Translations under genes and position numbers: made by a program
Shown here: positions 385 to 7,582 of the stretch, piece after piece
Numbering within the stretch: the first letter of the stretch is position 1
How the letters are laid out: each line of letters begins with the position of its first letter
The notes under the pieces: generated by a model
Databases searched by the model: none
Told to the model about the DNA's origin: nothing
The model's input: only the letters and a program-made list of their open reading frames with translations
Virus record (IMG/VR): IMGVR_UViG_3300029516_000112
Direction: 5' to 3' (one strand)
From: a virus
Lineage: Duplodnaviria > Heunggongvirae > Uroviricota > Caudoviricetes
DNA: 7,582 nt

Positions 385-813
385 ATGGGTTTTCGTAGCG
401 CATCAATTCTTACGTTGATTATTAGTGGGATTATTATCGGGTGCACTGATGCTGTATCGACAAATTATCATGACCGTACATCATCTTACTCCGATAAAAC
501 AATAGAGACACAGTATGTGAGTTCATCTGAACGTACTTCTGATGTTAGTGAGGATATCCGTCTGTATGCCCATCAAATCAAGAGCGCCATCGAAAAACAG
601 TTCGGGGATGCGAGTAAGTATTCAGGAAAAGAGTGTACACTGAGAATGCATATGGCCCCGAATGGCCTTCTACTGGAGGTTAAAAGAGAAAGTGGAGACC
701 TCGATTTATGTCGTGAAGCGATGAATGCGATAAAGAATGCTGATATACCTGCCCCCCCTTCGCCGGAAGTATATAAAGTATTTCAAAATGGGGTGCTGGA
801 TTTTAAACCCTGA
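385..813 (+). CDS. Lipoprotein with TolA C-terminal (TolAIII)-like domain
   Basis: 142-aa ORF. N-terminus MGFRSASILTLIISGIIIG|C has a signal peptide plus lipobox-like IIGC; residue after Cys is Thr (not Asp), suggesting outer-membrane sorting. A Ser/Thr-rich linker follows. The C-terminal ~85 aa (HQIKSAIEKQFGDASKYSGKECTLRMHMAPNGLLLEVK...IPAPPSPEVYKVFQNGVLDFKP) aligns colinearly with the E. coli TolA C-terminus as I recall it (...AGQIKSAIESKFYDASSYAGKTCTLRIKLAPDGMLL...IPKPPSQAVYEVFKNAPLDFKP), including both Cys and the terminal DFKP. Confidence 0.8.
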   Translation: MGFRSASILTLIISGIIIGCTDAVSTNYHDRTSSYSDKTIETQYVSSSERTSDVSEDIRLYAHQIKSAIEKQFGDASKYSGKECTLRMHMAPNGLLLEVKRESGDLDLCREAMNAIKNADIPAPPSPEVYKVFQNGVLDFKP

Positions 814-4998: not shown

Positions 4999-5205
4999 AT
5001 GCATAAAGATCAATACACTGATGCCCCCTCCCAGGAGCAGGTTCGTGTAAAAACTATGCTTAATAGCACCATTTCGATGGGTTACCCGGATGTTGTAATT
5101 GCATGTATAGAACATCAAGTATCTCTGGAAGCATTCAGGGCAATTGAGGCCGCGTTAGTAAAGCACGATAAGAATACGAAGGATTATTCCCTGGTGGTTG
5201 ACTGA
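4999..5205 (+). CDS. Hypothetical small protein
   Basis: 68-aa ORF with GGAG 8 nt upstream of the ATG; no recognisable motifs. A minus-strand ORF (4933-5118) overlaps it; the + ORF is preferred because all neighbouring genes are on + and it has an SD. Confidence 0.4.
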
Positions 5206-5571
5206 TCACCATAACTGCTAACCATTCTGACCATTTCACAAGTGACAGAGTCAATATCGTATTCTGTCACTGTAAGGCTAATACAGTACTGCAATTCAAC
5301 TACAGCAATGCCTCGTATTTAGGTGAATTTACAATATCGTCCAGTTCGGATGCCGGCTGCATTTCTGAAGATAAGGCATTTCGGTTCGCGTATTTTCCCC
5401 TCATGCTCGTCAGTCCTGCGCGTAGTAAGAAACAGGACACTCACACTAATTTGTGTGGGCATGCTGTGATGTCCTTCTGAATTATCCCCATGCCATTATG
5501 TAACGCTCTGTTTCAGATGCTCGTCACGGTTGTCAGGCTGTCGGGTCCTCCCAGTGGGGGTCCCTGCCACG

Positions 5572-5583
5572 GGGCGGGAGCGT
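5572..5583. other. Candidate cosN (cohesive-end site) within a lambda-like cos region (~5540-5600)
   Basis: CGGGTCCTCCC...CACG GGGCGGGAGCGT CGCGG parallels the lambda junction as I recall it (ACGGGTCCTTTCC...TTACG GGGCGGCGACCT CGCGG); 9 of 12 positions of the lambda cohesive end are shared. It lies ~185 bp upstream of the small-terminase gene, as cos does in lambda. Confidence 0.4.
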
Positions 5584-5766
5584 CGCGGAAAAAGACTAGT
5601 TTTTGCATTTCCATGGCGGCGGCAGCATGTTTGGTAATTTATTGATAATTAAAAGTTATTTCTCTTTTCACCTGTACAATATTTTTTCTCCCTGTCATTA
5701 GACCAGTTTGCAATTAATTGAAATATATAAATAAACCTGATTTTCACCTGCCAGATGGAGTTGCTT

Positions 5767-6294
5767 ATGTCAAATGTGAGCGGGATCGGTGATGCTTATT
5801 ACTGGAGTGTTTTTAAAATCGCCGAGGCCTTTGGGCTTCACCGGGACACAGTAAAAAAACGGCTCCTCGCGGCCAACACTCCTGTGGCTGCGACTGTCAG
5901 GGGGAACCCCGTTTACGCCCTGCAGCATGTCGGGCCCGCCCTGTTTAGTGTGAAGCATGAGGCAGCAGACTCTGTTCATGATCCATCCCGTATGGAGCCG
6001 AAAGAGAGAAAAGACTGGTACCAGTCTGAAAATGAAAGGATCAAGCTGGAAAAGGAGCAGCGAAAACTCATCCCAGTTGATGAAGTAGTCATCGTCTATT
6101 CGTCCATGAGAAAGGCTGTCGTCCAGGTTCTGGAGACAATTCCGGATGTTCTTGAACGCGATTGCGCCCTGACTCCTCAGGCCGTCGGCGTTGTACAGCA
6201 GGCCATTGATGACCTGCGATACACTCTTCAGGAAAAATCCTACGAGGCTTGTGCTGCTGAATTAATTCCTGATGAGGAAGGAGAGAGTCTCTAG
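5767..6294 (+). CDS. Terminase small subunit (DNA-recognition subunit)
   Basis: ORF directly upstream of, and almost abutting, the large terminase gene. Start taken as ATG 5767 (MSNVSG..., GGAG 6 nt upstream); in-frame alternative at 5755. The N-terminus (YWSVFKIAEAFGLHRDTVKKRL) looks like a helix-turn-helix and the C-terminus is acidic. Not lambda Nu1 by sequence. Confidence 0.7.
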   Translation: MSNVSGIGDAYYWSVFKIAEAFGLHRDTVKKRLLAANTPVAATVRGNPVYALQHVGPALFSVKHEAADSVHDPSRMEPKERKDWYQSENERIKLEKEQRKLIPVDEVVIVYSSMRKAVVQVLETIPDVLERDCALTPQAVGVVQQAIDDLRYTLQEKSYEACAAELIPDEEGESL

Positions 6295-6302
6295 GAGGAA
6301 TA

Positions 6303-7582
6303 ATGGGTTTTTCATCAGCCCGAAATTTGGGAAGGGACATATCGGCAGGATTTTCCCCACCACGTCGCATGCCGATTTCGGAGGCTGTTAAAAAATTCAT
6401 GCGTGTTCCCAAGGGGGCTGGTAACTCGGTGCCATGGGATCCTGAACTGACACCCTACATCATTGAGCCCATGAACTGCCTGGCATCGCGTGAATACGAT
6501 GCGGTGATTTTTGTTGGTCCTGCGCGAACAGGGAAGACCATTGGTCTGATCGATGGATGGATTGTCTATACCATCGTTTGCGATCCTTCGGACATGCTCG
6601 TTGTGCAGATGACCGAAGATAAGGCCCGCGAGCATTCTAAAAAGCGCCTCGACAGAACGTTCAGAAGCAGTGCGGCGGTAAAGAAAAGAATGAGTCCACG
6701 TCGTAACGACAATAATGTCCATGATAAGACGTTCAGGGATGGCTCGTTCCTTAAAATTGGTTGGCCCTCGGTCAACATTATGTCGTCGTCGGATTACCGG
6801 TTTGTCGCCTTAACCGATTACGACCGTTTTCCGGAGAATATCGACAGCGAGGGTGATGGTTTCTCCCTGGCCTCAAAACGTACCACCACATTTATGTCCG
6901 CCGGGATGACTCTGGTGGAGAGCTCGCCGGGACGTGACATCTGCGACAGCAAATGGCGACGTAAGTCGCCTCATGAAGCGCCACCGACGACTGGTATTCT
7001 TTCCCTTTACAATCGTGGTGACCGCCGCCGCTGGTACTGGCCATGTCCGCACTGCGGTGAATATTTTCAGCCAGCTATGGATGCCATGACCGGCTACCGT
7101 AATGAACCGGATCCCTTTAAAGCCAGTGAGGCGGCGTATCTACTTTGCCCGCACTGCAGCGGCATTATCACTGCGGAGAAAAAGCGTGAGCTCAATAGTG
7201 CAGGAGTCTGGTTACGTGAAGGTCAGGTCATTGATCGTAACGGCAACGTTTCCGGTGAACCGCGCCGCTCCCGTATCGCCAGTTTCTGGATGGAAGGGCC
7301 AGCTGCTGCGTATCAGACCTGGGCGCAACTGGTTTACAAATTACTGACTGCAGAACAGGAGTATGAAGCGACAGGAAGCGAAGAAACACTCAGGGCGGTT
7401 ATCAACACCGACTGGGGATTACCTTATCTTCCTCGTGCCAGCATGGAGCAACGAAAAAGTGAACTGCTTGAGCAGCGGGCAGAGCCAGTTCCTTCCCGCA
7501 GTGTTCCGGATGGCGTTAATTTCCTTGTGGCGACAGTGGATGTGCAGGCGGGACGTCATCGCCGTTTTGTGGTTCAGGTAAC
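6303..7582 (+). CDS. Terminase large subunit, lambda gpA family (3'-truncated by window edge)
   Basis: Open frame from ATG 6303 (AGGAGG 4 nt upstream) to the window end, at least 426 codons. Contains Walker A VGPARTGKT and a CPHCGE motif comparable to lambda gpA ACPHCGEE. The minus-strand ORFs at 6089-6778 overlap it and are taken as spurious. Confidence 0.9.
   Translation, partial: MGFSSARNLGRDISAGFSPPRRMPISEAVKKFMRVPKGAGNSVPWDPELTPYIIEPMNCLASREYDAVIFVGPARTGKTIGLIDGWIVYTIVCDPSDMLVVQMTEDKAREHSKKRLDRTFRSSAAVKKRMSPRRNDNNVHDKTFRDGSFLKIGWPSVNIMSSSDYRFVALTDYDRFPENIDSEGDGFSLASKRTTTFMSAGMTLVESSPGRDICDSKWRRKSPHEAPPTTGILSLYNRGDRRRWYWPCPHCGEYFQPAMDAMTGYRNEPDPFKASEAAYLLCPHCSGIITAEKKRELNSAGVWLREGQVIDRNGNVSGEPRRSRIASFWMEGPAAAYQTWAQLVYKLLTAEQEYEATGSEETLRAVINTDWGLPYLPRASMEQRKSELLEQRAEPVPSRSVPDGVNFLVATVDVQAGRHRRFVVQV

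Follow-up and report, generated by a model that had tools for sequence, protein, structure and literature searches.

Where does the virion chromosome of a lambdoid prophage begin and end, and which sequences would direct its terminase to that place? Both questions are raised by a stretch of 7,582 nt, here called the window, that belongs to the late part of a lambdoid prophage from E. coli. Its genes are arranged as follows.

Leftmost in the window: Qin-like lysis cassette (class II holin, ydfR-like gene, lysozyme, Rz-like gene)
Between the lysis cassette and 5767: cold-shock genes, then ynfN- and gnsB-like genes, then a non-coding stretch
5767–6294, plus strand: small terminase subunit of the DUF1441 family, with a GGAG ribosome-binding site at 5758–5761
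6303–7582, plus strand: large terminase subunit of the lambda gpA family, running off the window end

The small terminase gene and then the large terminase gene stand directly right of the non-coding stretch, and within the window neither carries a frameshift or a stop. Among the 15 matches listed, at least seven complete E. coli chromosomes, from different hosts, agree with the window at every base of 5300–6300, and at least 80% of that stretch is present in 627 of 5,426 genomes. A scan of genome contigs for the small terminase gave two loci only, one of them on a contig that resembles E. coli and was assigned to a Veillonella MAG.

The sequence-only reading of this DNA had placed a lambda-like cos site just upstream of the terminase genes. 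Here, we find that the segment 5543–5766 is very probably the cos of an E. coli prophage that is lambda-like and of the cdtI/Tritos type. It is a cos of the ordinary lambdoid-prophage kind, and as such was already implied by the public records of the phages cdtI and Tritos.

The cosQ–cosN junction

In lambda, cosQ is the packaging-termination element. A heptamer identical to it opens the segment and is followed by cosN and its right flank:

5543–5549, plus strand: cosQ-like heptamer GGGTCCT, identical to the lambda termination heptamer, 22 nt left of the predicted top-strand nick
5570–5585, no strand assigned: cosN, with predicted staggered nicks at 5571/5572 (top) and 5583/5584 (bottom)
5584–5606, plus strand: conserved right flank of cosN, CGCGGAAAAAGACTAGTTTTTGC, in the place of the lambda cosN-to-R3 spacer

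The 12-mer GGGCGGGAGCGT lies within the segment that had been claimed, at 5572–5583, and GGGTCCT is at 5543–5549. The 12-mer is the predicted 5' cohesive end. CG dinucleotides flank both predicted nicks, CGCGG stands directly right of the 12-mer as in lambda, and the left half of cosN (GGGCGG) together with both flanks is that of lambda and Gifsy-1. Rotational symmetry extends over 8 of the 16 bp of cosN, compared with 10 of 16 in lambda, and the spacer from cosQ to the nick is 22 nt in the window and 23 nt in lambda and Gifsy-1; lambda-like cos sites are characterised by a conserved 7-bp cosQ some 20–25 bp left of the nick.

Aligned without gaps, GGGCGGGAGCGT differs from the lambda end GGGCGGCGACCT at four of 12 positions (7, 8, 9 and 11) and not at three, as had been counted before. 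Positions 1–6, 10 and 12 are those of lambda, and every difference lies in the naturally variable right half. Because the true count is four, a search of the window with the lambda 12-mer at up to three mismatches did not recover the site at 5572–5583. The 12-mer alone is not above chance, given that 3.1 matches at up to three mismatches are expected in the window. The significance of the motif comes from the cosQ–cosN context rather than from the 12-mer: the window has a single instance of the composite pattern GGGTCCT-N22-GGGCGG-N6-CGCGG, and 200 dinucleotide-preserving shuffles gave none. In a global alignment of the junction with lambda cos, which had been suggested as a check, 32 of 51 columns are identical.

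A near-identical end is that of Gifsy-1, which is listed among the lambda-like phages, defined by 12-base 5' extensions, and whose end differs from lambda at positions 8, 9 and 11 (Feiss et al. 2015, PMC4669245). In its record, cos reads GGGTCCT, 23 nt, then GGGCGGCAGCGT, which differs from the window at position 7 only. The remainder of the Gifsy-1 system is different, with a Nu1-type small terminase and a lambda/21-like cosB. The differences from the lambda end had been expected to matter for packaging compatibility, which is only partly right. Variation at bp 7–12 of lambda-like cohesive ends is common and tolerated (Feiss et al. 2015, PMC4669245), and packaging specificity resides in the interaction of cosB with the small terminase, not in cosN (PMC4669245, PMC9026076). 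Therefore, the differences should affect the annealing of mixed ends rather than packaging.

The same cosQ–cosN architecture and right flank are found in other lambdoid phages with DUF1441 small terminases, namely mEp213/mEp043/LLS, mEp460/PhiR40_1, Gifsy-2, Fels-1 and VT1-Sakai, and the architecture is kept across phages of this terminase family from many genera. The predicted cohesive ends of mEp460 and PhiR40_1 are GGGCGGGAGCGT, identical to the window; in the same frame, mEp043 and LLS have GGGCGGCGCGCT, Fels-1 has GGGCGGCAGCGG and the Providencia phage PSTCR8lys has GGGCGGCGTGCT. What sets the mEp213/mEp460/Gifsy-2/Fels-1/VT1-Sakai group apart from the window is the small terminase, only 35–42% identical, and a cosB with other repeats (CATCATC runs, GTCGAA inverted repeats).

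Conservation and mosaic boundaries

For a column analysis we used 80 IMG/VR prophage loci with a 99–100% identical small terminase, which gave 59 unique upstream sequences. Homology among these starts a few bp left of GGGTCCT, and further left they fall into several unrelated classes. The cosQ heptamer is invariant in the set and the cosN core nearly so.

A wider view is given by the exact cosN 22-mer CCACGGGGCGGGAGCGTCGCGG, of which at least 119 viral contigs have a copy. On its right it adjoins four or more different cosB/small-terminase modules (mEp460-type at 42 loci, window-type at 26 in the clustering, PhiR40_1-type at nine, and one further type), and on its left roughly a dozen upstream classes, some of them related (the clustering threshold chosen gave 12). 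In these loci, too, the left boundary of homology is at cosQ. The cosB types diverge about 35–40 nt right of the start of the cohesive end, which is the position of lambda R3, and up to there the right flank CGCGGAAAAAGACTAGTTTTTGC is common to phages that differ in cosB and small terminase. The situation is the same as between lambda and 21, which have cosQ and cosN in common and a different cosB.

Four IMG/VR loci (L186, L239, L271 and L296) carry a window-type cos at about 95% identity and have no small-terminase gene. Their homology to the window runs from GGGTCCT to a few bases past the terminase start codon (5543 to about 5778), and both flanks are unrelated to the window; in three of the four, cos has an SSB gene on one side and a protease-capsid fusion gene on the other. 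These copies suggest that the segment 5540–5766 behaves as one portable unit.

The four loci may also be relevant to a comparison with phage-inducible chromosomal islands (PICIs), satellites that hijack lambda-like helpers and whose cos sites have helper-like cosQ and cosN (PMC9026076). PICI cos sites are without helper-type cosB repeats and are followed by an rpp gene, with no terminase genes, in islands that bear an integrase, whereas in the window the small and large terminase genes come directly after cos. A PICI origin of the window itself was considered and is ruled out: both terminase genes follow cos and a phage lysis cassette precedes it, so the window is phage DNA.

Candidate elements in cosB

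To the right of the shared flank, four features stand in the region that corresponds to cosB, with offsets given from the start of the cohesive end:

5612–5631, no strand assigned: block at the lambda R3 position (about +41 to +60), CATGGCGGCGGCAGCATGTT; relatives have CATGCTGTCAGCAGCAGGTG
5635–5647, minus strand: exact match (TATCAATAAATTA) to the IHF consensus WATCAANNNNTTR, in the place of lambda I1
5665–5674, plus strand: TTTTCACCTG copy 1, candidate small-terminase recognition element, CACCT core at +98
5741–5750, plus strand: TTTTCACCTG copy 2, candidate small-terminase element in a lambda R1-like place, CACCT core at +174

To compare this region across more distant relatives, the Providencia homologue of the small terminase (56% identical) was used as query, which returned 80 loci with 58–95% identity to that query. 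Together with the window and the Providencia phage PSTCR8lys, 62 of those loci make up a set of 64 sequences. In all 64 regions the cohesive end lies exactly 195 nt before the small-terminase ATG, and the constant spacing means that they align without gaps up to the ATG. The same spacing makes ATG 5767 a likelier start codon than ATG 5755; GGAG stands 6 nt upstream of it, and the PGAP and Tritos annotations agree. The distance from cohesive end to small terminase, which had been put at about 185 bp, is thus nearly right for ATG 5755 (183 nt) and too short for the likelier start (195 nt). In lambda the distance is 190 nt.

The IHF consensus has two matches in the window where 0.54 are expected, and at +64 on the minus strand it is present in 43 of the 64 related cos regions, the window included. 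By its consensus match, 5635–5647 is a candidate IHF site, and, as in lambda, it lies between the R3-position block and the later repeats.

R3 is the critical cosB site in lambda. In the window, the AGGTG core of the block at this position is degenerate (ATGTT), and the block is the first part to diverge between cosB types. The core position +56 of the relatives corresponds to the part of lambda R3 that contacts Nu1 (bp 55–63; PMC9026076).

The direct repeats of TTTTCACCTG had been noticed before and are indeed present, at 5665–5674 and 5741–5750, both on the plus strand. The repeat by itself is only mildly unusual, given that a repeated exact 10-mer arises in a 183-bp AT-rich stretch in 2.6% of mononucleotide shuffles and in 9% of first-order Markov simulations. 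The CACCT/AGGTG cores are much more distinctive in the family as a whole: the 64 relatives have a mean of 3.9 cores per 183 bp against 0.24 in shuffles, a 16-fold enrichment, and the cores occupy fixed positions (+174 on the plus strand in 63 sequences, +188 on the minus strand in 62, +99 on the minus strand in 59, +125 on the plus strand in 33 and +56 on the minus strand in 29). Relatives have four to five cores in both orientations, whereas the window has two only, both direct, and is without cores at +56, +125 and +188.

The two cores of the window, at +98 and +174 on the plus strand, coincide with two of the three most conserved core positions. The core at +174 is kept in 63 of 64 relatives despite diverged neighbouring sequence. 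The core at +98 is inverted with respect to the AGGTG found at +99 in 59 of 64, by a 2-bp central change (CACCTG for CAGGTG). Over the whole of cosB, the window agrees with 74% of the columns that are conserved in the family and with 45% of the others. In close relatives, copy 1 contributes three of the more variable columns.

The proposal that the TTTTCACCTG copies are small-terminase elements is plausible, with reservations. Both copies sit on core positions that are conserved in the family and are thus candidate small-terminase sites; copy 1 is variable in part and inverted relative to 59 of the 64. A literature search returned no characterisation of cosB recognition by DUF1441 small terminases.

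A different view of the same region accepts a lambda-type cos and denies that the repeats are bound by the small terminase. Copy 2 would then be conserved as sequence 17 nt upstream of a start codon, through translation or other local control, copy 1 would be a chance repeat in AT-rich DNA, and the small terminase would recognise some other sequence, for example the R3-position block (5612–5631). The frequency of repeated 10-mers in randomised 183-bp sequences of the same composition (2.6–9%) is in keeping with this, as are the three variable columns and the inverted core of copy 1, the overlap of the most conserved cores (+174 and +188) with the ribosome-binding region and the early divergence of the R3-position block between cosB types. 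On the other hand, the cores are 16-fold enriched and fixed among the 64 relatives, some of them far from the start codon (+56, +99 and +125), and the four cos copies without a terminase gene, where its translation can play no part, have kept both repeats intact. Moreover, CACCTG and CAGGTG differ in the central 2 bp only, so the inversion in the window keeps the core position. We regard this alternative as a serious possibility, although one held at distinctly less than even confidence.

A scan of 5200–5900 found no promoters or terminators, and a reading of the TTTTCACCTG repeats as promoter elements was dropped because the promoter scan was empty.

Terminase genes

The protein encoded at 5767–6294 matches Pfam PF07278 (DUF1441; E = 1.6e-44) and phrog_141, 'terminase small subunit' (E = 4e-65), with a cross-match to phrog_57, the family of lambda Nu1 (E = 1e-9). 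Conversely, phrog_57 includes lambda Nu1 (E = 1e-76) and the small terminase of Gifsy-1 (E = 3e-58), each of which cross-matches phrog_141 (E = 6e-8 and 4e-7, respectively). The pairwise BLASTP alignment with Nu1 is not significant (E = 4.6) and places KIAEAFGLHRDTVKKRL...RGNPV on the helix-turn-helix and wing region of Nu1; a PDB sequence search gave no significant solved structure. In our reading, these profile matches make the DUF1441 small terminase a probable distant relative of Nu1. The putative recognition helix reads LHRDTVKKRL in the window and LNRGTVKKRL in relatives, and it is a matter of speculation that this change of two residues could accompany an altered DNA site. The large terminase has both expected domains, an ATPase (Pfam GpA_ATPase, E = 1.6e-81) and an endonuclease (GpA_nuclease, E = 1e-25).

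Phage records and genome ends

In a megablast search of phage genomes with 5300–6300, the small terminase was 100% identical in three phages. The matches of cdtI (AB285204.1 / NC_009514.1) and Tritos (OV696610.1) run from query base 273 at record position 1, so that base 1 of both records corresponds to window 5572. Both records begin GGGCGGGAGCGTCGCGG and end ...GCCACG, and both were cut by their depositors exactly at the nick that the sequence-only reading had predicted. The cos DNA of the two phages is about 99% identical to the window and departs from it by a few substitutions, a G-to-A change at 5594 among them, and by 1 nt in a run of T; left of cosQ, the cdtI sequence has no relation to that of the window. 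Each record opens, at its left end, with the terminase genes and has the lysis genes at its right end, and the right end of Tritos has the same cspI, ynfN and gnsB genes and Qin-like lysis genes as the window. The orientation proposed earlier, with lysis and accessory genes at the right end of the virion DNA and terminase genes at the left, is thus the layout of these records.

Tritos is a prophage of E. coli LF82 that makes virions and plaques and has been imaged (PMC9928086), so a phage with a packaging module of this type is functional. The Tritos paper makes no statement on cos or on how the ends were set (PMC9928086), and the literature covered, which included the Tritos and LLS papers, contains no experimental end mapping for a cos of the cdtI/Tritos type. 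In the record of LLS, the opening 12 nt carry the annotation '5' extended single-strand cohesive site'. In the corresponding paper the cohesive ends of LLS and mEp213 are called 'inferred' and 'putative', the former being derived from the putative mEp213 cos (PMC12315714). A literature search for the cohesive-end sequence gave unrelated matches apart from the LLS paper.

Metagenome contigs add one coincidence of ends. A single viral contig of the window's small-terminase subgroup (L163) begins exactly at the base equivalent to 5572. At least 120 metagenome contigs with the cohesive end were found, and among the 80 listed none ends exactly at the nick. Several of them end 8–21 nt from it, probably at assembly breaks in a repeat.

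Many E. coli lambdoid prophages are defective, and the cos could look intact in a prophage that never makes these ends in this genome. The window covers only 7.6 kb of the prophage, and the related Stx and cryptic prophages VT1-Sakai and CP-1639 have 11 and 10 nt, respectively, where cosN needs 12. However, the viable phages Tritos, cdtI and HannyBb have the same or almost the same cosQ, cosN and small terminase, the terminase genes are free of frameshifts and stops, and at least seven complete chromosomes have 5300–6300 without a single change. A defective prophage is on this evidence unlikely.

It is also conceivable that the DNA is cut at this site in another register or with an overhang other than 12 nt. 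The 12-nt frame is drawn from analogy and from record cuts made by depositors, and other spacings between CCACG and CGCGG do occur (14 nt in Gifsy-2, 11 in VT1-Sakai and 10 in CP-1639); the record of mEp460_4F5 opens 5 nt to the left of the predicted nick and has 3 nt missing in cosN. Nevertheless, the frame in which the nicks separate CG from GGGCGG on the left and precede CG on the right is that of lambda and Gifsy-1, both described with 12-base 5' ends, the spacing from CCACG to CGCGG is exactly 12 nt in most relatives of the window's small-terminase subgroup, and contig L163 begins at the equivalent base. We consider another register very unlikely.

Headful (pac) packaging with a coincidental likeness to cos, for which nothing was found, is so improbable as to be dismissed, given the gpA-family large terminase, the composite motif that no shuffle reproduced and an architecture kept across many genera.

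Discussion

The segment 5543–5766 resembles lambda cos in its GGGTCCT cosQ, in the GGGCGG left half of the 12-nt end and in the CG flanks at both predicted nicks, and it is likewise followed by a gpA-family large terminase in a genome with lysis genes at the right end. It differs in the small terminase, which is related to Nu1 at the profile level only, and in an unrelated cosB that has two direct CACCTG elements where lambda, in the order R3-I1-R2-R1, has three 16-bp R sites with R2 inverted.

By analogy with lambda, and from the conservation of its elements, the site would work as follows. The DUF1441 small terminase, through its putative N-terminal helix-turn-helix, would bind repeated elements in cosB (5584–5766), and IHF bending at 5635–5647 may assist this binding. 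The bound small terminase would position the gpA-type large terminase on cosN, and the large terminase would nick the top strand at 5571/5572 and the bottom strand at 5583/5584 and leave the 12-nt 5' cohesive ends GGGCGGGAGCGT. Packaging would proceed rightward from the terminase genes and stop at the next cos, where cosQ (5543–5549) would be needed for the final cut. Virion DNA made in this way would begin on the left with the terminase genes and finish on the right with the lysis and cold-shock genes.

A joint reading of these comparisons, which we offer tentatively and hold at somewhat short of even confidence, is that DUF1441 small terminases may define several packaging-specificity groups apart from those of lambda, 21 and N15. 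The group of the window would recognise CACCTG/CAGGTG cores at fixed distances from cosN, and the window would be a variant of it with a re-oriented +98 core, a degenerate site at the R3 position and a putative recognition helix altered at two residues where it starts. As a portable unit, the 235-bp cos module (5543 to about 5778) would have been captured, without the terminase gene, by other elements that this type of phage might then package.

For the prophage itself, the location of cos sets the orientation and the ends of the virion chromosome and places the lysis, cold-shock and gnsB genes rightmost in it; it also predicts which co-resident prophages or satellites may be packageable by the same terminase. 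The added value is comparative and modest, in that one cosN core is common to several cosB/small-terminase modules. The pattern of CACCTG cores gives a testable lead on a specificity of DUF1441 small terminases that may be different from those of lambda, 21 and N15.

The longest ORF for the small terminase in the window begins at ATG 5755, but we favour ATG 5767 as the start, because of the GGAG at 5758-5761, the PGAP annotation and that of phage Tritos, and the distance from cosN, which is fixed at 195 nt in relatives. The record of phage cdtI annotates the gene from the upstream one of these two ATGs.

Other features in the window and at the cos sites of compared records
Window 385-813 and 964-1359: two ORFs upstream of the holin
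Window 5490-5645: 51-aa ORF running across cosQ, cosN and part of cosB
Window 5584-5606: right flank of cosN, CGCGGRAAANGGCNNNTTTTT, a block of 20-25 bp with equivalents in L009-L016 and L102-L181
L163 1-12: start of a 19.7-kb metagenome viral contig (IMGVR_UViG_3300038809_000004), first bases GGGCGGCGGACT
L098 1-30 and L099 170-200: linear record mEp460_4F5 (LR595868.1), whose first base is 5 nt to the left of where the nick is predicted
L013 ~468-500: VT1-Sakai cosN, 11 nt between CACG and CGCGG (12 in the family)
L014 ~516-545: CP-1639 cosN, 10 nt in the same interval

The CGCGGRAAANGGCNNNTTTTT block is kept among phages that differ in cosB and small terminase and is possibly a large-terminase contact or bend element; its place is analogous to that of the cosN-R3 spacer of lambda. 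Spacing within cosN varies in the Stx or cryptic prophages VT1-Sakai and CP-1639, and in Gifsy-2, where the CACG-CGCGG interval is 14 nt as opposed to the 12 of the family; such cosN sites may be damaged or cut differently.

Two records begin at or near cosN. Base 1 of L163 is the equivalent of the first base of the predicted cohesive end in the Providencia-type subgroup, and this contig start may be a physical DNA end. The offset start of mEp460_4F5, together with the 3 nt missing within its cosN, which reads GGGCGGGAGCGCGG, looks like an assembly error at physical ends.

ORFs equivalent to the 51-aa one are labelled 'hypothetical protein' in the HannyBb, PhiR40_1 and mEp460 records, and these cos-spanning ORFs are probably spurious gene calls. 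As for the two ORFs before the holin, the late region of the prophage may carry them as accessory (moron) genes; in E. coli MLI023K1, which is not collinear with the window in this part, genes placed similarly upstream of the holin have the annotation TolA C-terminal-domain protein. The cos of this E. coli prophage, with a small terminase that is 99% identical, also turns up on a contig assigned to a Veillonella parvula MAG (JAGZPX010000007.1), almost certainly through binning contamination.

A window-type cos module, ~95% identical, occurs without the small-terminase gene in the IMG/VR locus L186 (8194-8440) and likewise in L239, L271 and L296. These modules contain cosQ, cosN and cosB with both copies of the 10-mer TTTTCACCTG, homology ends a few bases beyond the terminase start codon, and a terminator-like hairpin follows. 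In L186, L239 and L296 the module has an SSB gene on one side and a gene for a protease-capsid fusion on the other, with a second cos-like site and a DUF1441 gene further along; upstream in L186 are genes of the integrase, Bro-N and AAA_25 types. Such loci could represent a satellite that borrows the packaging signal of a window-type phage, or a deletion derivative.
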